Assembly (NCBI GenBank): GCA_963819715.1 | Contig: CAWFXE010000001.1 | Coordinates: 196,332 to 260,331 of the forward strand | Direction of reading: 5' to 3' | DNA from: an uncultured Solirubrobacterales bacterium | GTDB lineage: Bacteria; Actinomycetota; Thermoleophilia; Solirubrobacterales; 70-9 | DNA: 64,000 nucleotides | Shown: piece after piece, positions 27,178 through 51,607 of the stretch | Position numbering within the stretch: the stretch's first letter is position 1 | Layout: every line of letters begins with the position of its first letter | Program-made: the position numbers and the translations under genes | Notes under the pieces: generated by a model | Database searches by the model: none | The model's input: only the letters and a program-made list of their open reading frames with translations | What the model was told of the DNA's origin: nothing

Positions 27178-28013
27178 GCGAGCATCCCGAACTTCTCCCG
27201 GATGCGCCGGTAGAAGCTCCGGCCCGGCAGCTGGGCGAGGCAGCTGACCGACTCCTCGAAGCGAATCTCGAGCTCGTCGCCCGGCGCGAGCTCTCCGGCC
27301 GGCTCACCGTCGAGCGAGATCTCGACCGGCTCCCGCCCCTCGGCATTGCGCACCTGAAGCGCATCGTTGGGCGCGACGACGAGCGCCCTGGCGGCGAGCG
27401 TGTGCGGGGCGATGAAGCTGACCACGTAGCCCTTCACGCCCCAGGCCAGTATCGGGCCCGCGTTTGCGAGGTTGTACCCCGTCGACCCGGCCGGGGTCGC
27501 GGCCACCAGCCCGTCGCAGCGGACGCTCCCCACCTCCTCGTCGCCGATCGCATACGAGAGCTCCGCCACTCGCCCGTGCGGCCGCCTCACGAAGCTGACG
27601 TCGTTCAGCCCGACGGGCATCTCGAGCGGCAGATTGACCCGGAGCGCCGGCAAGTCCATGGCCTCGAAGTCGCCCTTGAAGGCCCGCTCGAGCCCGGATT
27701 CGAGGTCCTCTCGCTCCACCGCGGCGAGGAAGCCGACGGTCCCGAAGTTGATGCCGAAGACCGGTACCCCGGTGCCGGAAAAGCGGCGCAGCGCGTAGAG
27801 GATGCTGCCGTCGCCGCCGAGGACGATGCAGACATCGGGTCGCTCGCCATCGCCGGCGCCCTCGACCCCGGCTGCCGCCTTGCCATGCTTTTCGATCTCA
27901 TCGGGCGTGCAGATGAGCTGAACGCCGGCTGACCTCGCCGCCTCGACGGTCTTCGCAACGGCCTCAGCGGAAGCCTCCGGGTGAGTGTGGGTGATCAGCA
28001 TCGCCCTCATCAC
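27174..28013 (-). CDS. nadK: NAD+ kinase
   Basis: ORF of 279 aa with VLGGDGSILYA and NFGTVGFL. Confidence 0.9.
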   Translation of the reverse strand: MMRAMLITHTHPEASAEAVAKTVEAARSAGVQLICTPDEIEKHGKAAAGVEGAGDGERPDVCIVLGGDGSILYALRRFSGTGVPVFGINFGTVGFLAAVEREDLESGLERAFKGDFEAMDLPALRVNLPLEMPVGLNDVSFVRRPHGRVAELSYAIGDEEVGSVRCDGLVAATPAGSTGYNLANAGPILAWGVKGYVVSFIAPHTLAARALVVAPNDALQVRNAEGREPVEISLDGEPAGELAPGDELEIRFEESVSCLAQLPGRSFYRRIREKFGMLA

Positions 28014-28792
28014 GGCTCCACCTCCTCGAGCGCCGCATCGAGGTCGACCTCATCGCCGGAGCGGGACGCCCAGACGAAGGTCTCGCGATTTCCCTTCGGG
28101 CCTGGCAGACCTGAGGAGGCCACTCCCCGAACCGCGAGGGCCTCCTTCCGCACAGCCTCGGCGACCTTGCGGATCGCATCGCGGCGATCGCTCGCGTCGC
28201 GAACGACGCCGCCCTTCCCGACCTTCTCCTTGCCGAGCTCGAACTGCGGCTTGACCAGGGCCAGGAGATCGAACTCGTCGGCCGCGGTGGCCACGATCGG
28301 CGCGATCAGCATCGCCAGGGAGATGAAGGAGACGTCCACGGTGATCAGCTGGGGGCGAAAAGGCAGGTAGGAGTCTCCCAGGGCGCGGGCATTGAGCCTC
28401 TCCATCACCAGCACGCGCGAGTCCTGTCGCAGCCGCCAGTCGAGCTGCCCGTAGCCGACGTCCACGGCGAGCACCGTCTGCGCCCCGCGCTGCAGCAGGC
28501 AGTCGGTGAAGCCACCGGTCGAGGCTCCGACATCCAGGCAGAGACGTCTCTCGACCTCGACGGGCAGCTCATCGAGAGCATTCTTCAGCTTGATCCCCCC
28601 TCGCGAGACGAACTCCTCGCCCTCGTCGACCACCAGGTCGGCCTTCTCGTCCACGAGCTCGCTCGGCTTCTCCACGGCGGCGCCGTCTTTGCCCAATCGC
28701 ACGCGGCCGGCCCGGACGGAGGCGGCCGCGGCCGTTCGCGACGGAGCCAGCCCGCGCTCGGCGAGCAGGGTGTCGGCACGACGGCGTGGCAT
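28010..28792 (-). CDS. tlyA: TlyA-family rRNA 2'-O-methyltransferase/hemolysin
   Basis: Internal start MPRRRADTLLAERGLAPSR (S4 domain). VSRGGIKL and DVGASTGGFTDCLL are present. Confidence 0.85.
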   Translation of the reverse strand: MPRRRADTLLAERGLAPSRTAAAASVRAGRVRLGKDGAAVEKPSELVDEKADLVVDEGEEFVSRGGIKLKNALDELPVEVERRLCLDVGASTGGFTDCLLQRGAQTVLAVDVGYGQLDWRLRQDSRVLVMERLNARALGDSYLPFRPQLITVDVSFISLAMLIAPIVATAADEFDLLALVKPQFELGKEKVGKGGVVRDASDRRDAIRKVAEAVRKEALAVRGVASSGLPGPKGNRETFVWASRSGDEVDLDAALEEVEP

Positions 28793-28862
28793 GCGCCAAC
28801 CGTACCTGCGGGTGGGCCGGCCTCGCGGGAGGCGATTGCCACGCCTGCCACTTGTCCTGGGT

Positions 28863-28897
28863 GTGACCGCGCTCACGCATAGGTCATCTTTGTAGAA
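28863..28897. repeat. left terminal inverted repeat
   Basis: GTGACCGCGCTCACGCATAGGTCATCTTTGTAGAA. The reverse complement of 31731-31765 differs at 3 positions. Confidence 0.6.
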
Positions 28898-29045
28898 GAG
28901 AAGGGATTGGCCCGACGCGTGGGAATAGGTCCGAGCGCCCCCGACCCCAGACGCAGGGTGGTGATTCGCACAGATCGGCAATCCATCCTCTGGGACCACC
29001 GGGGGCGCGCTACAAGCGGATTGACCTAGACGCGCGAGTGATTGG

Positions 29046-29723
29046 GTGTTGCCAAACACCGGGGACCGGTGCGATAGTCGGGACATGGACGGGGACGAGT
29101 CGCCGCAGCACGAGCCCGAAGACCAGGCGGAGCTAGAAGAAGACGACGACCAGTACGAACTGGCCTACGTCATCTTCACCACGCCGAATATCGATTTCCC
29201 GGAAGCCGAGGCGCTACTGGACGCGATGGGTCAGTGTGCGACTGCGAACATCGAAGAGGTCCATCTATTGATCTCGACGTTCGGAGGAAACGTCACCGCG
29301 GGGGTCAACGCGTACAACATTCTTCGCGGCATGCCCTTTCGCCTCGTGACGCACAACACCAGCGATGTCATGTCCATCGGGGTTGCCGTCTACCTCGCCG
29401 GCGACGAACGCCTCGTTTGCCCGGACGCCAAGTTCTTGACGCACGGAGTCACCCACAGAACGACGGGCCAGGCTTTTGGGGCGCAATGGTTTGGCGACAC
29501 GCGCAAACTGATCCTTGCCGACGAGGCCAAAATCAACGCGATCCTCGCGGATCGCACGTCGCTTTCGTTGGACGAACTGGACGCGGCCGCTGGCACTGAG
29601 CACACGCATGACGCCGACGCAGCCATCGCTAATGGCATCGCCCACCGGAAAGAGGACGTAGACATCCCCGCAGACGCCTTGGTCCTCACGGTGACGACTC
29701 GAAATACAGTCGTTGCCTCGTGA
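29046..29723 (+). CDS. ClpP/crotonase-fold serine protease-like protein
   Basis: ORF of 225 aa. LLISTFGGNVTAGVNAYNILRGMPFRLVTHNTSDVMSIGVAVYLAGDERLVCPDAKFLTHGV parallels ClpP INSPGG..AG..IYD...ASMG...IMIHQP. Candidate Ser (MSIG) and His (THG) residues are present. The N-terminus is acidic. Confidence 0.6.
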   Translation: MLPNTGDRCDSRDMDGDESPQHEPEDQAELEEDDDQYELAYVIFTTPNIDFPEAEALLDAMGQCATANIEEVHLLISTFGGNVTAGVNAYNILRGMPFRLVTHNTSDVMSIGVAVYLAGDERLVCPDAKFLTHGVTHRTTGQAFGAQWFGDTRKLILADEAKINAILADRTSLSLDELDAAAGTEHTHDADAAIANGIAHRKEDVDIPADALVLTVTTRNTVVAS

Positions 29724-29760
29724 GATTGAGAGGTTCGGAAACCGCACAGTCCACTCCTAC

Positions 29761-29803
29761 TGTCAAGTCCCTTGACAAATGCAGAACTGTCAAGTATCTT
29801 GAC
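29761..29803. promoter_or_regulatory. two tandem palindromes TGTCAAG-N3-CTTGAC(A) upstream of the transposase start
   Basis: They lie at 29761-29777 and 29788-29803, with centres 27 bp apart and about 70-110 bp upstream of the ATG at 29871. Confidence 0.4.
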
Positions 29804-29870
29804 GGTTGTGCCCCCTGCGAATCGCCATAACCCAACACGGCAAGCGTCCTCAGACTCGGACTACTCGCTG

Positions 29871-30746
29871 ATGGAGTTCATGCAGGAGTTCCCTGACGAT
29901 GCTGCCTGCCTGGAACACCTGTGGCGATCCCGCTACTCGGAGGACGGCGAACATGCCGACTGCCCCAAGTGCGAGCGGGAGCGGGTTTTCAAGAAGTACG
30001 CGACCAAGCAGGGCAGGCAGTCTTGGACTTGCACGGGCTGCGGGCATCACATCCACCCGACAGCGGGAACGATCTTCGCCAAGTCCTCTACGTCGCTGCA
30101 CCTTTGGTACTACGCGATGTATCTGATGGCCAGCACTCGCTGCGGGATCTCCGCCAAGCAGCTAGAGCGCGAGCTGGGCGTGTCCTACAAGACGGCGTGG
30201 CGCATGTTCAACAAGATTCGGAACCAACTGATGGCCGACGATGGCGAGCCGCTGTCCGGCGATGTAGAGATCGACGAAACCTCCACGGAAGGCCGACCGC
30301 GCAAGAAGATGAATCCGCGAGAGGCGGCGCAGTACCGCGAACGTAGTCGGCAAACCGTGATTGGCATGGTCGAGCGCGGGGGCAACGTCAGGCTCCGCGT
30401 GATCGCCTCTCGGCGGGGTGCGCCCCTGCGTAGTGCAGTTCGCGCCAACGTCGATCCTTCCGCGCTGATCTTCACGGACGATTGGCCCGCCTACAACTTC
30501 GTGGGCCGGGAGTTCCTGGGCCATAGTCGGATCAATCACTCGGCGGGCATCTACGTCGATGGCGACAACCACACGAACACGATCGAGGGCTTTTTCGGCA
30601 ACCTCAAGACTGGGATGCGTGGGACGTACAAGCATGTCTCGGCCAAGTGGTTGCAGTCCTATCTGGACGAATACGCCTACCGCTACAACCGCCGCCACGA
30701 TCCGCGAGCGATGTTCACGGGACTTCTGGACAAGGCTGCCAAGTGA
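29871..30746 (+). CDS. IS1595-family transposase (N-terminal zinc ribbon + DDE domain)
   Basis: Within ORF 29772..30746 the likely start is MEFMQEF. Motifs: CPKC...CTGCGH, ISAKQLERELGVSYKTAWRM, VEIDET, FTDDWPAYN and NTIEGFFGNLK. Confidence 0.85.
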   Translation: MEFMQEFPDDAACLEHLWRSRYSEDGEHADCPKCERERVFKKYATKQGRQSWTCTGCGHHIHPTAGTIFAKSSTSLHLWYYAMYLMASTRCGISAKQLERELGVSYKTAWRMFNKIRNQLMADDGEPLSGDVEIDETSTEGRPRKKMNPREAAQYRERSRQTVIGMVERGGNVRLRVIASRRGAPLRSAVRANVDPSALIFTDDWPAYNFVGREFLGHSRINHSAGIYVDGDNHTNTIEGFFGNLKTGMRGTYKHVSAKWLQSYLDEYAYRYNRRHDPRAMFTGLLDKAAK

Positions 30747-30943
30747 CCAACGACGAAGCCATCAGGGGCATCAAGCAGGCCGCTAGGAAGCGCGAGAGAG
30801 CGGCTAAGGCCCGACAGGAAGCGACTGAGGAACTACGGCGCTACGTCGAGGCGGCACAAGCAGCCGGCGTTTCAATCAGTCAGATTGCTCGCGAGGCGGA
30901 TCTGTCTCGGCAGGGCGTTTACGACCTACTCGCCCACCAGTAA
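30743..30943 (+). CDS. small HTH protein translationally coupled to the transposase
   Basis: The GTG at 30743 overlaps the transposase TGA (GTGA). The translation is VTNDEAIRG...AGVSISQIAREADLSRQGVYDLLAHQ. Confidence 0.5.
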   Translation: MTNDEAIRGIKQAARKRERAAKARQEATEELRRYVEAAQAAGVSISQIAREADLSRQGVYDLLAHQ

Positions 30944-31052
30944 CGCGCTCCAAGAGCGAGTCAAAGTCTTTGCGCTTTGGAACGGGAATCTCCGTTCCCT
31001 TGGGCGTGCGCTGCTTACGCTGTCGCTTCGCCATCACGAATGAGAGTACTGC

Positions 31053-31604
31053 GTGGACTCCCACAGACTGACCGTCTACAAGGTCGAACTGAAATCGCAA
31101 TTGGAACTGGCAGCAATAGCCGCTGACGACCTAGAGACTGCGCGACAGAACAAGGCACCCGGGACGCTCTGGTACGCGCTCCAAGGAATTCTGATGATCG
31201 CCGGAAACGTCTCCAAGCTGCTTTGGGGCTCGTCGGGAACCGAGGAGCAGAGAAAGGCGCGAGAGCCCTTGCGAAAGGCATCGGGCGTGGCTGACGATTC
31301 ACCGCTGCGTCCACGGAAGGTGCGCAACGCTTTTGAGCACTTCGACGAACGCATCGAGGAGTGGTACGAAGTAGGCGATATCGCGACGTTTGTCTCGCGA
31401 AGCGTCGGATCAGGAACCAACGAAGTAATCAGGGGGCATGGCGTTCCGCATGCCTTCGGCAACTACAATCCACGAAACGGAATCGTTCGCTTCTGGGACC
31501 ACGAGGTTTCAATCCCCGATCTCGTGACCGAAATGGACGCGATCTGGGACCGCCTTTGGCCCGACGAGAAGCGTCGGCTTAGGCCACCAGCACCGGGCCC
31601 CTGA
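31053..31604 (+). CDS. hypothetical alpha-helical protein with HEPN-like Rx4H motif (RNAFEH)
   Basis: ORF of 183 aa starting at GTG. An in-frame TGA at 31041 limits the N-terminus. The motif R91-N-A-F-E-H96 follows predicted helices. The HEPN assignment is an inference only. Confidence 0.4.
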   Translation: MDSHRLTVYKVELKSQLELAAIAADDLETARQNKAPGTLWYALQGILMIAGNVSKLLWGSSGTEEQRKAREPLRKASGVADDSPLRPRKVRNAFEHFDERIEEWYEVGDIATFVSRSVGSGTNEVIRGHGVPHAFGNYNPRNGIVRFWDHEVSIPDLVTEMDAIWDRLWPDEKRRLRPPAPGP

Positions 31605-31730
31605 CGGGTGCGGCCACTCCGTATCGCAGTGCTCGGCGTGGTTCGCCTTCCACTGGAGTTCTAGCTCGGCTCGTAGCTCGGTGTTCTCTCGCTGCAGGGC
31701 GGCAAGTTCGTGCGTAGCGGGCTTGTCAGT

Positions 31731-31765
31731 TTCTACAGAGATGACCTATGCGTGACCGCGCTCAC
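31731..31765. repeat. right terminal inverted repeat
   Basis: TTCTACAGAGATGACCTATGCGTGACCGCGCTCAC. The outer 14-mer GTGACCGCGCTCAC is identical to the left copy and in the same orientation. Confidence 0.6.
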
Positions 31766-31800
31766 AGACGAATCGCACATACGTTCGTACGCTGTTTTTC

Positions 31801-32166
31801 GTGATGACTCTGTTCAGGGCAATCCCGCTTCACGTGCACGCCGCTCTCGAGGTGGCCGCCGCCCCCATTTTGATGGTGGCGCCCTTCGCGCTCGGCTTCA
31901 CGGCCTTCGCGGGCGCCCTGAGCATCGCTCTCGGGATTTTGCTGCTTGGGCTCGCCGCGTCGGTCTATGGCGACACCGAGCGGGGGAATGTGCCCCTGAG
32001 TGCCCATGCGGGTCTCGACTACACGCTGGCCGCCGCCACCATCGCGGCCGGGGTCGTGGCGGGAATCGCCGGCGATTACGTCGCAACAGTCTTTTTGGTC
32101 GGGTTCGGCTCCGCGCACATGGCGCTGACCGCTTCAACGCGGTTCAGTCGTCCGCTCGGCGCCTGA
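31801..32166 (+). CDS. small integral membrane protein (hypothetical)
   Basis: ORF of 121 aa with four hydrophobic segments, followed by the hairpin at 32223-32251. Confidence 0.55.
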   Translation: MMTLFRAIPLHVHAALEVAAAPILMVAPFALGFTAFAGALSIALGILLLGLAASVYGDTERGNVPLSAHAGLDYTLAAATIAAGVVAGIAGDYVATVFLVGFGSAHMALTASTRFSRPLGA

Positions 32167-32198
32167 GTACCGGCTACCTCCCACAGACAACACACATA

Positions 32199-32252
32199 TC
32201 TCTCCTCCCTGTAGTACCCCTGAAACGGCCCTCTTTCCCGGAGGGCCGTTTC
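32199..32252. repeat. attL: 54-bp direct repeat including a terminator-like hairpin
   Basis: TCTCTCCTCCCTGTAGTACCCCTGAAACGGCCCTCTTTCCCGGAGGGCCGTTTC is identical to 42319-42372. Confidence 0.75.
32223..32251 (+). terminator. hairpin AAACGGCCCTC-tttcccg-GAGGGCCGTTT
   Basis: An 11-bp stem and 7-nt loop downstream of the 31801..32166 gene. The copy at 42343-42371 is followed by CGCTTTTCG and lies downstream of the convergent gene at 42396..42764. Confidence 0.55.
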
Positions 32253-32314
32253 TCTTATGGGTGCAGGTATTTTGTGGCCGTTGTCCAGCTAAAAAGCGGC
32301 GACGACGCGCCTTC

Positions 32315-32348
32315 GTGCGCCAGTCTGTGCGCCAGTGTGTGCGCCAGT
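32315..32348. repeat. three tandem GTGCGCCAGT copies (12-bp period), candidate integrase arm-type sites
   Basis: Copies at 32315, 32327 and 32339, about 63 bp inside attL. The same decamer occurs twice near attR. Confidence 0.5.
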
Positions 32349-32376
32349 CAGCGGCAGCGTAGACTCGCCCGGAGTC

Positions 32377-32937
32377 TTGACGAAGGCACGGGAGATCACC
32401 CGCGTCATCGACGCGCTGCTAGCCGAGCGCCCGGCGATGGTCGCTGCCTATGGCCTGGACAGCTGCATCATCTGCACTCGGATCGCCGTCGAGATCGCTC
32501 GTGGTCAGGGCTTGCGTATTGAGCCGCTCGCCGTCGCCGTCCGGCTGAGCAAGCAGGGATTGCCGGCCGGTAGCCTCGGCTTCACATCGCGGCCTCTGAC
32601 GACCGGGGATTGGGACGGCCATGTTGTCGCGGTGATCGAAGGCCGACACGCGCTCGACCTCACCCTCGATTCAGCGCGAATGGGCGGCTTCGACGTCGTG
32701 CCTGTGACTTTTGAGGTGGCCCCGGAATTCCGGCGCGGTGATGGCGAGGCGACCATCCAGGTCGGAGGCACCGAGGTCCGATATCAGGCGCGTCCGGACG
32801 AGAAGGAATACCTGAGTCTCGAGGACTGGAGTGACGTGGACGAGCGGAACCGTGTCCTGCCCTCATCCGCCGCCGGCTCACGGCCTAGGGAAACCGCGGT
32901 CGGGCCGGTGGACGTCTACTTGAACTTCCCGCAGTAA
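32377..32937 (+). CDS. hypothetical protein (possible Cys-His-Asp fold)
   Basis: ORF 32335..32937. The upstream part overlaps the arm repeats, so the TTG at 32377 is the more likely start. DSCIICTR ... WDGHVVAV ... LDLTLD are candidate catalytic residues. Confidence 0.45.
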   Translation: MTKAREITRVIDALLAERPAMVAAYGLDSCIICTRIAVEIARGQGLRIEPLAVAVRLSKQGLPAGSLGFTSRPLTTGDWDGHVVAVIEGRHALDLTLDSARMGGFDVVPVTFEVAPEFRRGDGEATIQVGGTEVRYQARPDEKEYLSLEDWSDVDERNRVLPSSAAGSRPRETAVGPVDVYLNFPQ

Positions 32938-33151
32938 TCCCCGATCGAGTCCCCGCGAGGTCGAGTTGCGCCTTCAACAGCGCTCGCTTGACGTCTTTCC
33001 CCTCGTGGCGCGGGCTTGAGAGCGTTGCCCCGTGATCTTCCTTCTCGAGAATCTTGTGGCTGCCAGAGGTTCGGCAGTGGACCCAGCCGAAGCGGACCAG
33101 CGCCCGGACATGCCTCTCCCCCGGCGCCAGGGGAAGATCCCGCAAGCCCAC
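32885..33151 (-). CDS. hicA: HicA-family mRNA interferase toxin
   Basis: ORF of 88 aa. ALVRFGWVHCRTSGSHKILEKEDHGATLSSPRHEGKDVKRALLKAQLDLAG matches the HicA pattern. Confidence 0.75.
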   Translation of the reverse strand: MGLRDLPLAPGERHVRALVRFGWVHCRTSGSHKILEKEDHGATLSSPRHEGKDVKRALLKAQLDLAGTRSGITAGSSSRRPPARPRFP

Positions 33152-33553
33152 TTAGCCTAGGCGGGCTGGCGTTCGTGCCGGTCTGGAGGGAACGGGAAGG
33201 CGTGATCCTTCGCCTCCCGCAAGGGAACGGTGATGCTCGTCGCCTGGCCCAAAATCGGGCATCTGTGTCGAGGTTGCCTCCCGCGCGGCTCGATCCATGC
33301 GCGCCCCGATGACGCCAACAATCGCCTCATTCAAATTCTCCAGAGCTTCCTGCTCGGTCTCACCCTGGCTGGCGCAGCCAGGCAGATTCAGGCAGAAAGC
33401 GACGAAGCCGCCATCGACTTCATCCTCTTCGACGAGCACCTCAAGCTGCAGCTGGTCGTCAACTGATGCTGCTCCTCGTCGACCCCCAGTATGCGCGCGC
33501 GGGTATTGCCAACCGCCCGCGAAGGCGTCGATCATCTTTTCCATGGGCGTCAT
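33152..33553 (-). CDS. hicB: HicB-family antitoxin
   Basis: LEVLVEEDEVDGGFVAFCLNLPGCASQGETEQEALENLNEAI is a HicB/UPF0150 signature. The stop abuts the hicA start. The start codon is uncertain. Confidence 0.7.
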   Translation of the reverse strand: MTPMEKMIDAFAGGWQYPRAHTGGRRGAASVDDQLQLEVLVEEDEVDGGFVAFCLNLPGCASQGETEQEALENLNEAIVGVIGARMDRAAREATSTQMPDFGPGDEHHRSLAGGEGSRLPVPSRPARTPARLG

Positions 33554-33700
33554 ATCGGATCCTGGGCTGTTGGGACTTGAGGAGCGCCCGTAGGCCCTTC
33601 GGGACGCGGCCACGCTCTACTGCATCTATTGCGTCTATCAGGCTACCCCGTCCGCAACCTGGGTTTCAAGCAGCGTTCGACTCCGAACGCCCAATCCCGC

Positions 33701-34876
33701 TCATAGCGCCAAATCCGCTGCAGGTTCACGCCCCTGCGCACCCAGGTAGGCGTCCATCCGCTCCCGCACCTCGTCATGGCTCCCGGGCATCAGGTGCCCG
33801 TAGGTGTCGAACGTCGTCTGGATCTTCGAGTGCCCCATGTAGGTCTGGATCGCCTTCGGATTGGCGCCCGAGTCGATCATCAGCGAGGCGAACGTGTGCC
33901 GGCACTCGTGGAGCGTGATCGGCTCGAGCTCGCTCGCCTCCCAGCACTCCTGCGCGCGGTTGTCGATCGTCGAAGGCACGAACGGGTCGGATCCGGTGCG
34001 GCCGAACACGAGCGCCTCGCCGGAGCGCCCGGTGGTGATCATGTACTCGTCGAGGTGATCGCGCAGGGTCGCCAGGAGCGGCACCGTCCGCCGACTCGAC
34101 TCCGACTTCGGGTCGATCGCGCCTTCCTCCTGGTCCCAGGATCGCTCGACGTGGATCCGCGACGAGGCCAGGTCGACGTCGACGCAGCGCAGCGCCATCA
34201 GCTCGCCGCGGCGCAGTCCGGCATAGAACGCCACCGCCCATAGAGCGCGGTCGCTGTCGGGCAGAACCGCGAGGAGCGCGGCTGCCTCCTCGGCCGAGGC
34301 GATCCGCTTCGGCCGGACGTTCCCCGGCACCGGCAGATCGATCCGCTCGGCCGGGTTGTTGGCGAGCTCGTCGCGGTCGATCGCGCGTCGGTAGAACGCC
34401 TGGACAGGGTTGAGGATGTTGCTCGCGCTGCCCGCGGCGAGCCCCTGCGCGAGCAGCTCGTCCGCCAGCTGCTGGACGTCGGCCCGCTGCACATCGCCGA
34501 CACGGATCGCGCCGAGTCGCGAGGGCTCGATGTAGTTGCGCACCGCCCGCTCGTAGGAGCGGATCGTGTTCGGCTTGTAGCGAGCTCGGTTCTTGGGTCT
34601 GACCGTGCCCGCCTCCATCCCCGCCACGAATTCGGCTAGGGCTTCGGCCAAGGTTCGCGCGTCCCGGCGGATCGGCCGCAGCGCGCCGCGGTTCGCAGCC
34701 GCCAGCGCATCGGCACGCCAGGACTTCGCCTCGGCCTCGCGAGCAAACGTCTTGCGGACCTTCTTGCCGGATCGCGGCAGGTAGACCCAGGCCTCGTATC
34801 CGGCGTTGCAGCTGCAGCGCCGACCCGATCGGGCGCCGCAGCCTCGTGAATGCCGTTTCGTGATCCCAGTGGCCAT
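33701..34876 (-). CDS. int: tyrosine-type integrase
   Basis: ORF of 391 aa with AFYAGLRRGELMAL, HECRHTFASLMI and MGHSKIQTTFDTYGHL. Confidence 0.9.
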   Translation of the reverse strand: MATGITKRHSRGCGARSGRRCSCNAGYEAWVYLPRSGKKVRKTFAREAEAKSWRADALAAANRGALRPIRRDARTLAEALAEFVAGMEAGTVRPKNRARYKPNTIRSYERAVRNYIEPSRLGAIRVGDVQRADVQQLADELLAQGLAAGSASNILNPVQAFYRRAIDRDELANNPAERIDLPVPGNVRPKRIASAEEAAALLAVLPDSDRALWAVAFYAGLRRGELMALRCVDVDLASSRIHVERSWDQEEGAIDPKSESSRRTVPLLATLRDHLDEYMITTGRSGEALVFGRTGSDPFVPSTIDNRAQECWEASELEPITLHECRHTFASLMIDSGANPKAIQTYMGHSKIQTTFDTYGHLMPGSHDEVRERMDAYLGAQGREPAADLAL

Positions 34877-35378
34877 CAGCTCGCCTCCGCGTAGGACAGC
34901 CCCTCGACGGCCAAAGCAGCGTCCAGCTGCGCCATCGCCACCGGCTCGCCGCCGGCTGTCGCTGGGAGTGGAACCTTGCGGCGGTGCTCATCGCCCACTC
35001 AAGGGCATCGAGCAGTGGCCGTGAGCTGTCCACCTGTTGGTCATCGAGCGGGCTCACGTCGAGCTCGGAGGACAACCGACTGTTAGCGATTCGTGCCATC
35101 GCTTCTGCGACGTGCGCCAGGACGTCGTCGTCTGCTTGGACCTCAGCGCGTGTTGGCGAGCTCGCGTTGAGCTCGTCCATTAGGTCGATCGCGGCGGACA
35201 AGTAGCGCGCCGGGCCGTGAAGATCCGCGGTCATGGGATCGTCGCGGGCAAGCAGGCGCCGACTCATCTCTTCGGCCTGCTGCTGCGCCCACTTTGCGTT
35301 GCTGTCGATCTCCGCGGCTACAGACAGCCGGAACAGCTCGACGTGCTCGGCGGGAATGCTCAGGGTTCTCTCAGCCAT
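34876..35378 (-). CDS. hypothetical protein upstream of int, reading frame apparently disrupted
   Basis: MAERTLSIPAEHVELF...DALEWAMSTAAR looks coding, then becomes R/W-rich. A second frame gives ...EPVAMAQLDAALAVEGLSYAEAS and stops at TGA, overlapping the int ATG (TGATG). This implies a frameshift near 34950. Confidence 0.4.
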
Positions 35379-35546
35379 GCGTGCCCTCTCCTCTTCCGGA
35401 GGGGACGCGAGCGGCGGATACGCTCCCGGGGCGCCGGGCTATCTATCCCGGTGCCACGGGGGCGGCGACACCACTCGCGCGCCCCATTTCTGTTGGGGCG
35501 ACCCTACCCGCCACGGTGGCCAGACGCAAGGGTCGCTCACAAGCCC

Positions 35547-35564
35547 TCGCAACGCTTCGCAACG
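35547..35564. promoter_or_regulatory. TCGCAACG-CT-TCGCAACG motif upstream of cargo gene 1
   Basis: An 18-mer repeated with one mismatch at 36338-36355, upstream of the next cargo gene. The two half sites are 10 bp apart. Confidence 0.35.
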
Positions 35565-35706
35565 GTTCCTTGGCTTGAGCCCTACTCGGCACACGCGCTA
35601 GGTCCGATCGCCCGCCCCTGGCCGTCTGAGGCCGCCTCGGCCGGCAGGAATCCGGGGAGGCCCCCTGGTGATCCGGGGGGCTTGTCCGTCGCGCTAGGCT
35701 CGCACC

Positions 35707-36318
35707 GTGCGCCGCCCGATTTCTCTCGCGATCCTCGCGGCCCTCGTACTCGTTGCCCTTGCCGTCGGCTTCTCGAGCGCCAACCGACCGACGGCCGCGA
35801 AGGGAGCGTCTACCTGCGGCGTCGAGCGCTGGGCAGTCAAGACCCTCTCTGATCCGCGCGAGAAGCTGGTCAGATTCAAGCCCCATGACACCTCGGTCGG
35901 CCGACTCGGTAAGAAGCCCGCCCCGCACGTCGGCTCTAGCACCCCGCGGATCAAGGGAGTGGAGACGACGACCTATCGAGTGCAGGCGCGCCTGGTCGAG
36001 ATGAAGCTCGAGGACGACCGCGACGTCCATCTCGTGATCGCCGTCCCGAGCGCACCCTCCAAGACGATGATCGTGGAGTTCCCCGACACGACCTGTCCGG
36101 GCGCTTCCAGCTCGCCGAAGAAGGCGAGAATGGCGAGCGCGAGGGCCTCGCTGATCGCGGCCTGTGGTCAGCCGTCGTCCAGCCACTTCACCGACCTCAG
36201 CGGCACGGCGACGGTGACCGGCGTCGGCTTCTTCGACGTCCCGCACGGGCAAACCGGGGTGGCACCGAACGCCATCGAACTCCATCCCGTGCTTAAGGTC
36301 GCTCGTCTGACCTGTTGA
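35707..36318 (+). CDS. secreted hypothetical protein (signal peptide)
   Basis: ORF of 203 aa. The N-terminus MRRPISLAILAALVLVALAVGFSSA looks like a signal peptide. Conserved-looking blocks: GVERWAVKT, DVHLVI, FFDVPHGQTGVAPNAIELHPV. Confidence 0.6.
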   Translation: MRRPISLAILAALVLVALAVGFSSANRPTAAKGASTCGVERWAVKTLSDPREKLVRFKPHDTSVGRLGKKPAPHVGSSTPRIKGVETTTYRVQARLVEMKLEDDRDVHLVIAVPSAPSKTMIVEFPDTTCPGASSSPKKARMASARASLIAACGQPSSSHFTDLSGTATVTGVGFFDVPHGQTGVAPNAIELHPVLKVARLTC

Positions 36319-36337
36319 GCCGGTAGCTGAGCGTCCA

Positions 36338-36355
36338 TCGCAACGCTTCGCAGCG
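36338..36355. promoter_or_regulatory. second copy of the TCGCAACGCTTCGCA(A/G)CG motif
   Basis: About 45 bp upstream of the start at 36400. Confidence 0.35.
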
Positions 36356-36399
36356 CTCTTGCGGACCCACTTAGCCCGGGCGCCCAGCACCATTGTTCG

Positions 36400-36651
36400 A
36401 TGCGGTACGTTCGCCGTGTGACGCGCTTTGTATTCGAATACGAGGATGAGTCCGGGGACTGGCAGGTTCTCGGCACGGCACAGGGGTCGGGCGACGAGAC
36501 GCACCTCGCCGACGCTCTGAAAGACCTCCAGGAGAATGAGCGCGAGGAATTGCGAGCGGGCCGCTACCGCTACCGGCCCGATGACGATTCGACGGAGCGC
36601 TCGACTGTCTTCACCCTGGATGCGAGCGGGCACGTGCACCTGTTGCCCTAG
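36400..36651 (+). CDS. hypothetical protein (83 aa, acidic)
   Basis: ORF with coding-like composition. No family recognised. Confidence 0.5.
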   Translation: MRYVRRVTRFVFEYEDESGDWQVLGTAQGSGDETHLADALKDLQENEREELRAGRYRYRPDDDSTERSTVFTLDASGHVHLLP

Positions 36652-36747
36652 GGAACCTTCAAAGTCGCCAACCCGCGCGGCATCACGCCATCTGGGCCTA
36701 TTGCCTGCCCTTGACCCGACCCATGTGGGCACGGGAGACTGGCCCAC

Positions 36748-37473
36748 GTGTTCGAAACTGCAACTTGGAGAACCGAGAACCGGCGGCACTTCGCTGTTGT
36801 GGAGCGTCTCTATCAGGAGGTTGGCCTGACGGTCAAGATCGAGGATTGGAACCTCGGCGATCACAGCGAGTTCGCTGCACTTCTCGCGCACCAGGTCGGC
36901 GCACAGCTCTTGAGCAGTTCGATCGCATTCGGCACGTCGCAACACGGGAAGGTTTCGAACCGTCGCAAGAACAAGGCCTGGGCCCCGGTCGAGCCGGAAG
37001 CCGGCGCACGAGCGGCCATCTTCCTCACTCTTGCGATGGCCGCGATGCTCTCTTCGGAGCTTGTTGAGGGCCTGGCCCCGCAGCCTGTCGAGCATGCGCG
37101 CCTTCTCGTGCAGAACGCATACTCGCCGCCCGACGAAGATCTGGAAGCGATCGAAGCCGTTAATACCCGAGTCCTCAACCGGCGTTCCTCGAAGGAAACC
37201 CAGGAGGCCACAGAACGCGGGGGCTTCGCGGCGAACATGATCGTGGAGGACGGCCGGGCGGCTCTTTGCTTTCAAGCACTTGAACTTGCCGGAGCCGATC
37301 CAGCGAACATGCCGGCCTTCGAGTTCGTGGCCGACGTCGATCAGTCGCAGTGGTATGACGTCCAGAACTACGAGTGGTTCGAAGCGGTTTCGATGGTCTT
37401 CCCCCCGTACTGGAACGCGGCGGAAGACAGATTCCTCGAAATCGCGTTCGCTCCCTTCGTCGAAGCGGAATGA
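36748..37473 (+). CDS. hypothetical protein (241 aa)
   Basis: ORF with coding-like composition. No family recognised. Confidence 0.55.
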   Translation: MFETATWRTENRRHFAVVERLYQEVGLTVKIEDWNLGDHSEFAALLAHQVGAQLLSSSIAFGTSQHGKVSNRRKNKAWAPVEPEAGARAAIFLTLAMAAMLSSELVEGLAPQPVEHARLLVQNAYSPPDEDLEAIEAVNTRVLNRRSSKETQEATERGGFAANMIVEDGRAALCFQALELAGADPANMPAFEFVADVDQSQWYDVQNYEWFEAVSMVFPPYWNAAEDRFLEIAFAPFVEAE

Positions 37474-37502
37474 CAACCGACTTCTGCGTCGGAGTCTGAG
37501 TC

Positions 37503-38607
37503 TCACTGGGCGGCCGGATAACCGTCTGCGTCGGGATGCAGGGCCGCCAGCTCCCCGTAGCTGAAGCCGTAGGCACTTGCCATGGACGCTCGCACGCAGT
37601 CGTTGCCCTTTCGCTTGAACTCACGACGGACGAGGCCGCCCGGTAGCCGCTCGACGCTGATCGGCTCCCGGGTCGCGCGGCCTCCTTCTCGATCACTTCG
37701 AGCAGCGCGGCGGTCAGATGCTCGAAGTCGCGCTGCACCTGATTCCTACCCGGGCCGGTTCTCGCCGCCAGCTCGGCACGCGCACGCTCCATTCGGGCCC
37801 CCTGCTTCTCTGCGTCCCGGGACAGATCCGGATTCGTGAGGCAGAAATGCTGCGGGGCGCCCCCGAAGCTCGCCATTGCGTCGCGGACCATTCGCCGCTT
37901 GCGCTGGCGCAGATGGATCGTCTGCATGCCCTCGATTAGCCGCAGCTGCTCCTCGGCGTCCGCGCCGGCGGCGGTCTCTTCGGCAGAGACCCACTCGTCC
38001 CAGTGGTCGACCATCGCGTCGGCCTGGGCGTAGAGGGCATCGTTCGCGAGCCGCTTCGTGGCCTCCACCTTGCGGCCCGCCTTGCCGACGTCCGCTCGCC
38101 TAACGGGCTCGGTCGCCTTGGGGATGTCGTCACCCTTCTCGAGCGCAGCCGCCGCGGCTGCCCGATCAGCGGCGGGTGCTGCCTCGTGGGCCCGGCGGGC
38201 ATCGTCGAGCTCGGCCTTCGCGGCGTAGAGGGCGGCAACGGCGGTCCTGGCCTTCGCCGCTGCCTTCTGGATCGGATCCGGCGCCTCCGTGCCTTCGGGC
38301 ACGACGTAGTGCAGATCGGGGTCGCCCCAGATCCGGCGCTTGGCTTCCTTGGTCGGTCGTGTCGCAGTCGCGGTGCTCATGCGTTTCTCCTCGTTGGAGT
38401 GGTCTTCGGGGGTCATGTCTTCGAGTGCCGGCTGGCGGTCGTCATCCGCCTCCAGGCCCGCGTCCTCGAGGGCCTGGCGTCGCGCGTCCCGGTACTCCGT
38501 CGTCTCGAACTTCGGATCGGGCTCGCCGGTGCCGCAGGGCGGTGTTGCGCTTCACCATCTCGTCGACGCGTGAGCTCGTCGGGGTTCTTGAATCGGCGGA
38601 CGCTCAT
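37503..38607 (-). pseudogene. hypothetical element protein, at least 3 frame changes
   Basis: Manual translation changes frame three times. It reads MSVRRFKNPDELTR, then RVDEMVKRNTALR, then GEPDPKFETTEYRDARRQALEDAG...MSTATATRP...EVIEKEAA (ORF 37175..38416), then REPISVERLPGGLVRREFKRKGNDCVRASMASAYGFSYGELAALHPDADGYPAAQ, with a stop at 37503. Confidence 0.45.
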
Positions 38608-49585: not shown

Positions 49586-51607
49586 CTAGCCCAGGATGGT
49601 CTCGCGAGTGCCCAGCGCCGTGAGCACGCGCTCGGCGACCGCCTCGCCCGTGAAACCGACCTCCTCGCGGAGGAGCGCCGGCTTGCCATGCGTCACATAG
49701 CGATCCGGCAGGCCGATGCGCAGGACCCGCGCGCGCTCGGAGCCGTCGGTGAAGACATCCTCGACGTGCTCCAGGACTCCGGAGCCGAACCCACCCGCGA
49801 GGACGTTCTCCTCGACCGTGACGAGAAGATCGTGTTCGGCCGCGAGCTTCTCGATCAGCTCGCCGTCGAGGGGCTTGGCGAAGCGGCCGTCGGCGACGGT
49901 GGGCTCGAGACCCCGGCCGCGGAGGATCTCCGCCGCGCGAAGCGCGACCTGCACTCCGTAGCCGTAGCCGAGCAGCGCGACGCGTTCCCCGGGCAGCAGA
50001 AACTCGCCCTTCCCGATCTCGATCCCCTTGGGGGCATCCGGCATCGGAGCGCCCTCGGCGGCGCCGCGCGGATAGCGAAAGGCGATTGGGCCGTCGTCGT
50101 AGGCCAGCGCGGTATGCAGCATGTGCACCAGCATCGCCTCGTCCCGCGGGGCCATCACCACCACGTTCGGCAGCTGGCGGAAGTAGGAGACGTCGATGAA
50201 GCCGTGGTGGGTCGGGCCATCGTCGCCCACGAGGCCGGCGCGGTCCATCGCGAAGACCACGTTCAGCTTCTGCAGGCAGACGTCATGGACGAGCTGGTCG
50301 AAGGCGCGCTGCAGGAAGGTCGAGTAGATCGCGCATACGGGCTTCGCGCCCTGGATCGCGAGGCCGGAAGCGAACAGGACCGCGTCCTGCTCGGCGATGC
50401 CGACGTCGTAGTACTGATCGGGGAGCGCATCGGCCAGTTTGTTGAGTCCGGTCCCTCCCGCCATGGCGGCCGTGATCCCGATCACCCGCGGATCGCGCTC
50501 GGCTTCCTCGACGAGTGCGTCCGCGAAGACGGCCGTGTACTGGGGGGGCGCCTTGGGCGGCGGCTTCTCGAGCTTCTCGATCTTCTCCGGAGAGTCGGAC
50601 TCGCTGACAGGGACGACCGGCTTCTTCTCGGCTGGCTTGCCGTCGACAATGGAGCCGGGCTTGGCGGCGTGCCATTTCTCCATCCCCTCCAGGCCGCCCT
50701 CCTCGGCAGGCTCGAAGCCCTTGCCCTTGACGGTCTGGATGTGCACGACGACCGGCCGGCGAGCCTCGAGCGCCTTGCGCAGCGCATTGCGGAGCTCGGT
50801 CACGTTGTGCCCGTCGATCGGTCCCATGTAGGCGAGGTCGAGCTCTTCGAAGAAGAGCCCGGGCGCGTAGTAGGCCTTGATCGCGGCCTTCACCTCGGGG
50901 CCGAGTCGCTCGATCCGGCGGCCGAGACCCAGGGGCAGCTGGGTCAGCCGCTCCTCGGTGGTGGAGCGCGCCTTATAGAGACCCGGATTCAACCGCACGC
51001 GCTGGAAGTAGCGGGACATCGCCCCGACGTTCGGCGAGATCGACATGCCGTTGTCGTTCAGGACGATCACCATCGGCGTCTGCAGGCCACCGGCGTGGTG
51101 CAGCGCCTCGTAGGCGACGCCTCCGGTCAGCGCGCCGTCGCCGATCACCGCGACGACCCTGCCGTCCTCCCCGATTCCCTTCCGCATGGCCTCCTTGAGA
51201 CCGACGCCGTAGCCGATCGAGGTCGAGGCGTGGCCCGCGCCCATGATGTCGTGCTCGGACTCGAAGACCGAGCAGAAGGGAGCGAGGCCCTCGTACTGGC
51301 GGATGGTGCCGAGCTCGTCCTTGCGGCCGGTGAGGACCTTGTGCGGATAGGCCTGGTGGCCGACGTCCCAGAGGATCTTGTCCGTCGGCGAGTCGAGCAG
51401 GCTGTGGAGAGCGACCGTCAGCTCGCACGTGCCCAGGTTGGCGCCGAAGTGGCCGCCGATCTCGCCGATCGTGTCGATGATCAACTCGCGGACCTCCTGC
51501 GCCACCTGCTGGAGCTGCTCGTCCGAGAGCTCGGTCAGGTCGGCGGGAGAATCGATCGAGTCGAGCAGGCGCTGCTCGGGCTTCGGGTCGGTTGATTCCT
51601 CGGTCAT
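49586..51607 (-). CDS. dxs: 1-deoxy-D-xylulose-5-phosphate synthase
   Basis: ORF of 673 aa with GGHFGANLGTCELT, WDVGHQAYPHK and GDGALTGG. Confidence 0.95.
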   Translation of the reverse strand: MTEESTDPKPEQRLLDSIDSPADLTELSDEQLQQVAQEVRELIIDTIGEIGGHFGANLGTCELTVALHSLLDSPTDKILWDVGHQAYPHKVLTGRKDELGTIRQYEGLAPFCSVFESEHDIMGAGHASTSIGYGVGLKEAMRKGIGEDGRVVAVIGDGALTGGVAYEALHHAGGLQTPMVIVLNDNGMSISPNVGAMSRYFQRVRLNPGLYKARSTTEERLTQLPLGLGRRIERLGPEVKAAIKAYYAPGLFFEELDLAYMGPIDGHNVTELRNALRKALEARRPVVVHIQTVKGKGFEPAEEGGLEGMEKWHAAKPGSIVDGKPAEKKPVVPVSESDSPEKIEKLEKPPPKAPPQYTAVFADALVEEAERDPRVIGITAAMAGGTGLNKLADALPDQYYDVGIAEQDAVLFASGLAIQGAKPVCAIYSTFLQRAFDQLVHDVCLQKLNVVFAMDRAGLVGDDGPTHHGFIDVSYFRQLPNVVVMAPRDEAMLVHMLHTALAYDDGPIAFRYPRGAAEGAPMPDAPKGIEIGKGEFLLPGERVALLGYGYGVQVALRAAEILRGRGLEPTVADGRFAKPLDGELIEKLAAEHDLLVTVEENVLAGGFGSGVLEHVEDVFTDGSERARVLRIGLPDRYVTHGKPALLREEVGFTGEAVAERVLTALGTRETILG

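Follow-up and report, generated by a model that had tools for sequence, protein, structure and literature searches.

The window analysed here, the whole 64-kb stretch of DNA from an uncultured Solirubrobacterales bacterium, very probably harbors at positions 28863-31765 a single intact transporter insertion sequence (tIS) of the IS1595 family, ~2.88 kb in length, in which two cargo genes hitch-hike independently of each other and not as a pair. One cargo gene encodes a ClpP-like serine peptidase, the other a protein of 183 amino acids (aa) with the motif RNxFEH. A preliminary description of this DNA had noted an element of lower G+C content, bounded by inverted repeats and placed in the tlyA neighbourhood, with four genes: for a ClpP-like protease, an IS1595 transposase, a small helix-turn-helix (HTH) protein and the 183-aa protein, seen there as a putative HEPN RNase. 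The element and its genes were confirmed. All four open reading frames (ORFs) were found, and the G+C content was 0.58-0.63 within the element and higher in the left (0.67-0.72) and right (0.63-0.67) flanks. The insertion lies in the tlyA neighbourhood, not within tlyA itself (28010-28795, minus strand); the insertion point is intergenic, 67 bp upstream of the tlyA start. What the comparison with related loci appears to add is a target resembling a CRP box, two cargo slots and two families of unannotated cargo genes associated with mobile elements.

The transposase gene (29808-30746, plus strand) codes for 312 aa from GTG 29808, the ORF being open from TTG 29772; the product has a zinc ribbon, an HTH and an ISXO2-like DDE domain. 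Its membership in the IS1595 family, as first described, is well founded: the protein matched NF033547 with an E-value of 6.7e-56 (189.5 bits with a cut-off of 75, profile positions 2-215 of 215) and PF12762 with an E-value of 3e-35, while the score with PF12760 (22.2 bits) was slightly under the cut-off of 25.4. The clade around this transposase has at least 7,987 proteins at an E-value of 1e-30 or better, many of them 72-91% identical and 312-317 aa long; some members carry the NCBI name 'IS1595 family transposase [Solirubrobacterales bacterium]'. Most close homologues cover 100% of the 312-aa version, and GTG 29808 is favoured as the start codon by the length of the homologues.

The inverted-repeat boundary of the element is real: the arms 28862-28897 and 31731-31766 (36 nt) are 92% complementary, and a 24-nt core, CACGCATAGGTCATCTYTGTAGAA, was observed twice in the window, both times at the element ends, with no occurrence expected. 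The reported length of 35 bp for the terminal inverted repeats did not stand, as the outer 14 nt, GTGACCGCGCTCAC, make a direct repeat derived from the target; the same plus-strand sequence is present at both ends, and it seems inverted only because it is an imperfect palindrome. From left to right, the ends are made of the left direct repeat (28863-28876), which together with the flanking T reads TGTGA-N6-TCAC; the left terminal inverted repeat GCATAGGTCATCTTTGTAGAA (28877-28897, plus strand; 21 nt, or 24 nt if CAC 28874-28876 is owned by the insertion sequence), which is kept in two relatives (L171 and L172; L numbers designate loci); the right terminal inverted repeat (31731-31751, minus strand); and the right direct repeat GTGACCGCGCTCAC (31752-31765), followed by A to give ...TCACA. 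The true inverted repeats of the insertion sequence are the inner 21-24 nt; these differ by one mismatch, are unique in the window and have homologous ends in nine relatives.

An empty version of the site was found in public data. A contig of soil metagenome run X4 passes from position 28852 to 31752; its two sides are separated by 11 diverged letters, and the 14-mer is there once. A second contig, of run X2, connects 28804 with 31761. Run X1 contains fragments identical to parts of the element. The 14-mer would have arisen from the target in one of two ways, through a duplication of 8 bp, ACCGCGCT, within a target GTG...CAC, or through a duplication of 14 bp. The central 8 bp of the direct repeat vary among elements and the outer GTG and CAC are constant; the ends of the insertion sequence could supply CAC and GTG. 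A plain 8-bp duplication is seen in a more distant relative (L153), and 8 bp is the norm for the IS1595 family (ISfinder value).

The same end anatomy was observed in seven other complete elements (L001, L004, L011, L013, L015, L017 and L019) and, at the one surviving end, in two partial elements (L167 and L170): a direct repeat GTGA-N6-TCAC, with N6 different in each element, followed inward by inverted repeats that start with GC(A/T)TA. Thus eight complete elements, that of the window included, situated at seven independent sites, are all flanked by GTGA-N6-TCAC direct repeats. The base outside the repeat is T in nine out of 10 left junctions and A at most right junctions; therefore, the target can be reconstructed as TGTGA-N6-TCACA. 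As the 14-mer pattern is expected just 0.62 times per 64 kb, we attribute its recurrence to target specificity and not to chance. One more GTGA-N6-TCAC site, unoccupied and lacking the outer T and A, is situated in the window at 50472-50485.

In E. coli the CRP consensus is TTGTGANNNNNNTCACAA (PMC545781). The reconstructed target equals the operator consensus of CRP/FNR type, although binding of a Crp-family protein to it is only putative; the motif is present at the ends of the window element, of the seven complete elements named above, and of L171 and L172. In the mechanism that we propose the transposase would bind the inverted repeats and insert the element at the centre of the TGTGA-N6-TCACA palindrome, and the duplication would take in the central 8 bp or perhaps the full 14 bp. 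Insertion at the palindrome centre with such a duplication would rebuild a near-complete palindrome at each junction. One could propose, at somewhat less than an even chance, that a large IS1595 lineage of actinobacteria of Solirubrobacterales type homes specifically into CRP/FNR-type palindromes and rebuilds the box at each junction, so that control of the neighbouring genes, and perhaps of the insertion sequence, by a host Crp-family regulator could be kept or co-opted. In the same tentative proposal the lineage is also a modular two-slot shuttle spreading two unannotated families of conflict type, the orphan ClpP-like family (found also on IS1-like, IS4/5-like and integrase-bearing elements) and the RNxFEH family (~3,500 clusters).

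Symmetric or palindromic targets are used by other insertion sequences, e.g. IS10 (NGCTNAGCN), IS231 (GGG-N5-CCC) and IS1397/ISKpn1, which target repetitive extragenic palindromes (REP). The target of the window element likewise lies between genes and is symmetric about the staggered cuts that a dimeric DDE transposase makes; unlike those, it coincides with the CRP/FNR operator consensus and is rebuilt at both junctions. It is known that several IS families have tIS members with genes not related to transposition (PMC7986276). Features shared by the window element and the IS1595-family tIS are the DDE transposase, in which an N-terminal zinc ribbon is combined with an ISXO2-like domain, the terminal inverted repeats and the passenger genes inside; a short target duplication of 8 bp, if this is its size here, would also fit the family. 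It differs from the known IS1595 tIS in the strong sequence-specific insertion into TGTGA-N6-TCACA, the coupled HTH gene with paired operators, the conserved small antisense ORF and the two exchangeable slots. In the literature on IS1595 passenger genes, Clp and defence (ISfinder entries not covered) we found no description of a ClpP-like cargo or of this target.

The backbone of the element, as we propose it, would consist of the 21-24-bp terminal inverted repeats, the DDE transposase gene, the coupled gene for a 66-aa HTH protein, two palindromic operators over the transposase promoter and a small convergent ORF for a basic protein. The HTH gene (30743-30943, plus strand) was described earlier as small and coupled to the transposase gene by a GTGA overlap, and indeed it overlaps the transposase stop codon in this way at 30743. 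Its product matched phrog_686 with an E-value of 1.8e-9 and, weakly, several other HTH families. Homologues of the gene directly follow the transposase gene in L011, L015, L171 and L172/173, and in L173 the overlap was called likewise. Upstream of the transposase gene there are two palindromes, GTCAAG-N3-CTTGAC (29762-29776 and 29789-29803, 27 bp apart), which are candidate operators for the HTH protein; they overlap the −35 (TTGACA, 29772-29777) and −10 (TATCTT, 29795-29800) hexamers of a promoter-like site. Paired palindromes were observed in all three HTH-bearing elements scanned (the window element, L011 and L015, the latter two with one or two mismatches in each palindrome); the five scanned elements without the HTH gene (L001, L004, L013, L017 and L019) lack them. 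This restriction to HTH-bearing elements points to autoregulation; the 66-aa protein is likely to be an autoregulator that represses the transposase gene.

The small ORF (30876-31034, minus strand) codes for 52 aa, MAKRQRKQRTPKGTEIPVPKRKDF..., and is convergent with the transposase and HTH genes; its very basic product contains the motif EIPVPKRKDF and had no match in the searches made with it. A profile made from seven copies found it in every element of the lineage, L011 and L015 included, and in no other locus, and a tblastn search showed it also in L171, which is without the 183-aa gene. We characterized this ORF, on the basis of its distribution, as part of the insertion sequence backbone and not as cargo. 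The ORF was also considered as an antitoxin of the 183-aa gene; this candidate was rejected, as the ORF tracks the transposase backbone (L011, L015, L171) and is missing at loci outside insertion sequences.

The closest relatives (L171, L172-174 and L004) occupy the same site, upstream of tlyA and a NAD kinase gene, with elements at 3946-6529 in L171, from 2376 in L172, from 1936 in L173 and at 526-2812 in L004. Identity of their transposases to the window copy is 92% (L171), 87.6% (L172-174) and 67% (L004). DNA homology between the window and L171 extends over 29754-30925 and resumes at 31727, with none over 28898-29753 and 30926-31726. We take these two intervals as cargo slots: slot 1 runs from the left inverted repeat to the transposase promoter and slot 2 from the small ORF to the right inverted repeat. 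The contents of the slots differ among the elements. In the window, slot 1 holds the ClpP-like gene and slot 2 the RNxFEH gene; in L171, slot 1 holds an unrelated 231-aa ORF on the other strand and slot 2 nothing; in L172/173, slot 1 is without cargo and the contig stops before slot 2; in L004, there is nothing in slot 1 and an RNxFEH gene in slot 2; in L011, a ClpP-like gene in slot 1 is combined with an unrelated ORF, with a weak HNH hint, in slot 2. L011 (5664-8872) is a sister element with a ClpP-like gene, a frameshifted transposase gene and an HTH gene; the hint in its slot-2 ORF is a weak N-terminal match to HNH_5, and a 73-aa ORF with an Excalibur domain precedes its ClpP-like gene. 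PDB searches with the alternative cargo proteins (231 aa from L171 and 270 aa from L011) gave no match. Two other proteins, of 190 aa from L011 and 178 aa from L008, were considered as homologues of the 183-aa protein and rejected, the identity in alignment being 15-19%.

Solo right ends of the insertion sequence were observed in L170 (5001-5600) and L167 (~4250). In L170 the solo right end is attached to an RNxFEH gene without a transposase, beside a PhdYeFM antitoxin gene and PadR/MMPL genes. Solo right ends still attached to the RNxFEH gene suggest that decayed elements leave cargo behind.

The presence of a ClpP-like gene and a putative HEPN RNase gene in one element had led to the proposal of a defence or toxin module, and we therefore looked for the partner at loci of either family. 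The RNxFEH family was represented by 72 genome and eight metagenome loci, the ClpP-like family by 80 loci from metagenomes and three more independent contexts, likewise metagenomic. No ClpP-like gene was found within ~6 kb at any locus of the RNxFEH family (0 in a count of 76) and, conversely, none of the 83 other ClpP-like loci had an RNxFEH-family gene, even with six diverse members used as queries. Since the two genes co-occur only in this element, the module is unsupported, and we consider that they probably joined the element separately and have no joint function. A module of two genes for toxicity or abortive infection, travelling as a unit, with e.g. the protease activating or degrading the HEPN RNase, would account for both genes being inside one inverted-repeat-bounded element, for the strong link of both families to mobile elements and for the invariant Rx4H motif, and still we regard it as very improbable. 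Besides the absence of co-occurrence in loci of either family, the genes reside in different slots, with the transposase and HTH genes between them, and the slots vary independently: L171 has neither gene, L004 has the RNxFEH gene only, and L011 has the ClpP-like gene along with a different gene. Neither protein matches a PADLOC model; for all four proteins of the element PADLOC-DB v2 gave no credible match, the only two hits being weak ones to the transposase (WYL, E-value 0.0022; PDC-S64, E-value 0.049). For either gene singly, a role in defence, abortive infection or toxicity is possible.

The ClpP-like gene in slot 1 (29085-29723, plus strand) codes for 212 aa from ATG 29085, or for 225 aa from GTG 29046. 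A promoter-like site at 29049-29078 on the plus strand (TTGCCA, 18 nt, GATAGT, with TG; a consensus match) would be placed for a leaderless transcript from ATG 29085. The protein matched Pfam CLP_protease with an E-value of 2.9e-13, and its scores with the NCBIfam ClpP equivalogs were far under their cut-offs. The preliminary description of a ClpP-like protease with Ser and His residues and an acidic N-terminus agrees with the alignments: Ser110 and His133 (225-aa numbering) are invariant and align with Ser97 and His122 of E. coli ClpP, E. coli Asp171 aligns with Glu185, and the tail is acidic. The column of Glu185 contains, in 16 homologues, 11 E, three D, one M and one Q. A catalytic set composed of the Ser-His pair and an acidic third residue is plausible from these alignments. 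The first ~40 residues form a poorly conserved acidic tail that does not align to the N-terminus of ClpP; the canonical region that contacts ClpX/ClpA and gates the pore is not present.

The best match to the ClpP-like protein among solved structures is PpClpP1 of Pseudomonas plecoglossicida (PDB 9UXT, E-value 3.4e-13), a divergent ClpP paralogue. PpClpP1 is N-terminally truncated and has a Ser-His-Pro triad in which Ser and His are essential; it forms wide-pore tetradecamers with low activity and does not bind ClpX (PMC12900304). The two proteins have in common the absence of the canonical ClpP N-terminal region and a non-canonical third residue of the triad. That residue is Glu in the ClpP-like protein (Glu/Asp in most of its family) and Pro in PpClpP1, and the acidic N-terminal tail is a feature of the ClpP-like family not shared by PpClpP1. 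Another difference is that the ClpP-like gene rides mobile elements, whereas PpClpP1 is a chromosomal paralogue paired with a canonical ClpP. By analogy, the ClpP-like protein may be a self-compartmentalising peptidase that would form ring oligomers as PpClpP1 does, without docking of ClpX or another unfoldase, and would be carried for the benefit of mobile elements.

The neighbourhoods of ClpP-like genes were considered at 84 loci, 40 of which have a 2-kb flank on at least one side. An IS1595 transposase was found in 15 of these loci, an IS1-like DDE transposase in nine (four directly upstream, on the same strand), a tyrosine integrase in seven and a DDE_Tnp_1 transposase in six. IS1595 inverted repeats enclose the ClpP-like gene in L011, L136, L153 and L163, the last three being more distant IS1595 elements. 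On the evidence of these neighbourhoods the orphan ClpP-like family looks like general mobile-element cargo. Members of the family (L087-L166; e.g. L121, L132, L142 and L157; L095, L126 and L155; L119 and L141) directly adjoin transposases of three DDE families and tyrosine integrases.

The 183-aa gene in slot 2 (31053-31604, plus strand) belongs to a large uncharacterised family, with 3,482 clusters at 50% identity matched at E-values up to 0.001, of which 752 have values no higher than 1e-30; with few exceptions the members are proteins of 165-200 aa that stand alone. The RNAFEH motif pointed out earlier is there as R91-N-A-F-E-H96, and in an alignment of 37 homologues R91, N92, F94 and H96 are invariant, as are K55, W58, D81, S83, L85 and D98. 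The protein had no match in Pfam, NCBIfam, PADLOC, PHROGs and PDB sequences; Pfam and PADLOC searches with all 37 aligned members gave scattered chance matches only, and the family profile, as well as the single protein, matched nothing among PDB sequences. Ten longer family members had no informative fused domains. In the AlphaFold2 model (pLDDT 88.4, pTM 0.84) a pair of long helices is accompanied by shorter ones, a small three-stranded sheet and a C-terminal helix; the RNxFEH motif is found where a helix begins. A Foldseek search of the PDB with this model gave a best E-value of 0.9 with a TM score below 0.4, and no HEPN protein was among the 50 matches listed; in BFVD the sole good match (E-value 1.4e-5, TM score 0.66) was an uncharacterised Gordonia phage protein that itself belongs to the RNxFEH family.

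By tblastn, family members were found in Gordonia phages ZiggyZoo and Samba, in a Glutamicibacter phage, on the Bacillus cereus plasmid pBFI_4 and on a Rubrobacter plasmid. The ZiggyZoo gene (gp33, L085) is part of a block transcribed leftward, with the structural genes on one side and the serine integrase gene on the other, a location where prophage-expressed genes are frequent. The temperate actinobacteriophages with an RNxFEH-family gene include ZiggyZoo, Samba and Madeline. On chromosomes, the family occurs in variable regions. As for insertion sequences, the gene adjoins the right inverted repeat in L001, L004, L013, L015, L017, L019 and L170 and an IS1595 transposase in L014 and L167, in all at least nine related IS1595 elements, with both complete and partial ones counted. 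Clustering of ORFs within 3 kb of the gene at the 72 genome loci showed no conserved partner: only the IS1595 transposase recurred (eight loci), while other clusters were made of antisense ORFs overlapping the gene itself or of minor groups shared by 3-4 loci. The 97 flanking proteins, when scanned with Pfam and PADLOC, gave a heterogeneous picture, with integrases, DNA methylases, AbiEii-type ATPases and PDC-S06 candidates among the neighbours at some chromosomal loci and housekeeping genes at others.

The preferred reading, still a doubtful one, is that the RNxFEH protein is a self-contained enzyme, a single-gene conflict or addiction factor of nuclease or RNase type that benefits mobile elements. 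The protein could, more specifically, be a stand-alone HEPN-type RNase, with a dimer building the R-x4-H site, acting as a single-gene factor for abortive infection, exclusion or addiction and protecting or stabilising insertion sequences, prophages and plasmids; we see this as a possibility on the unlikely side. RNxFEH conforms to the Rx4-6H motif and is invariant, and Asn after Arg is common in this motif of HEPN families. As in HEPN RNases (HepT toxins, Abi HEPN proteins), R-N-x-x-x-H is situated at a helix start of a mainly helical protein of ~180 aa with long N-terminal helices in the predicted structure, and the protein is stand-alone, borne by mobile elements and without a conserved partner across 70 loci. 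Its presence in Gordonia temperate phages and on the B. cereus plasmid, as well as beside DNA methylases, AbiEii-type ATPases and PDC-S06 candidates at some loci, may also agree with such a role. Still, the HEPN assignment was not borne out beyond the motif. HEPN-clan Pfam models matched none of the 37 members at E-values up to 5, no PDB sequence was matched, and Foldseek found no HEPN structure for a confidently predicted model, with 0.9 as the best E-value in the PDB. Moreover, the three-stranded sheet of the model does not occur in the minimal HEPN fold, and the invariant K55, W58, D81, S83 and D98 exceed what the HEPN motif needs. With this extra beta element and the additional invariant polar residues, we do not claim membership in the HEPN group.

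The position and orientation of the RNxFEH gene by the right inverted repeat are the same in most elements of the lineage, as would be expected if its product were an accessory factor of the insertion sequence (e.g. one that regulates it, or assists its transposition or the choice of target) and not cargo. We find this hardly likely: elements without the gene keep the target motif and intact ends (L011 has a different gene there and L171 none), and a family of ~3,500 clusters, present also in phages and plasmids, has no IS1595 transposase nearby at most of the 72 genome loci.

Occupation of the tlyA site in four cases may have a history other than repeated homing, namely one ancient insertion followed by vertical inheritance and cargo turnover in place; we give it somewhat less than an even chance. 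Divergence of the element and of the host is indeed similar among the window, L171, L172-174 and L004. Between the window and L171 nucleotide identity is ~83% in the transposase region and 79-86% in the flanks; at the protein level the transposases are 92% identical and the host proteins 80-87.5% (TlyA 80%, NAD kinase 82%, SPW-like protein 87.5%). For L004 the values are 67% for the transposase and 70-71% for the host proteins, and the 3′ part of the RNxFEH gene together with the right end is homologous to that of the window at the DNA level. However, contigs at least 85% identical to the window flanks have no element at this site and a single 14-mer, which under a single insertion would need precise excision, and the lineage has picked the same motif at six other unrelated sites.

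Several considerations weigh against the interpretation of the element as a site-specific tIS with two independent cargo genes. The four tlyA-site cases may be one old insertion, since divergence of the element is about that of the host; counting them as one lowers the number of independent sites to seven, though the motif stays. From sequence, a duplication of 8 bp is not distinguishable from one of 14 bp. Transposition was not seen, and the window contains one copy of the element. The promoter and operator assignments are consensus matches. The two cargo genes might still cooperate by chance in this one element, and the RNxFEH protein matched no profile that would point to its activity. With these points taken into account, we still hold the single intact tIS with non-paired cargo to be very probable.

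Downstream of the insertion sequence by ~1.1-3.1 kb there are a HicA/HicB toxin-antitoxin pair (32885-33613, minus strand) and a tyrosine integrase gene (33701-34876, minus strand), which are probably part of a second integrated element; beyond the integrase gene, two large ORFs (35443-37506 and 37175-38416) have no Pfam match. Also without a Pfam match is a 200-aa ORF (32335-32937) just downstream of the gene for the SPW-like membrane protein. No Rfam families were found in 27500-36000 and no tRNA genes in 20000-50000.

These results indicate that the proposal of a protease-RNase defence system can be set aside. The site-specific IS1595 lineage offers instead a clean way to learn how a 16-bp palindrome is recognised by a simple DDE transposase, and whether insertion is guided by a host regulator or by the bend that it makes in DNA. 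The RNxFEH family, with ~3,500 clusters at 50% identity and an invariant site, has no entry in Pfam, NCBIfam, PADLOC or PDB; as it travels on insertion sequences, temperate phages and plasmids, it can reasonably be suspected of being a new conflict factor encoded by a single gene. Finally, the repeated location of the orphan ClpP-like peptidase beside recombinases of four kinds suggests that mobile elements may gain from a compartmentalised protease of their own.

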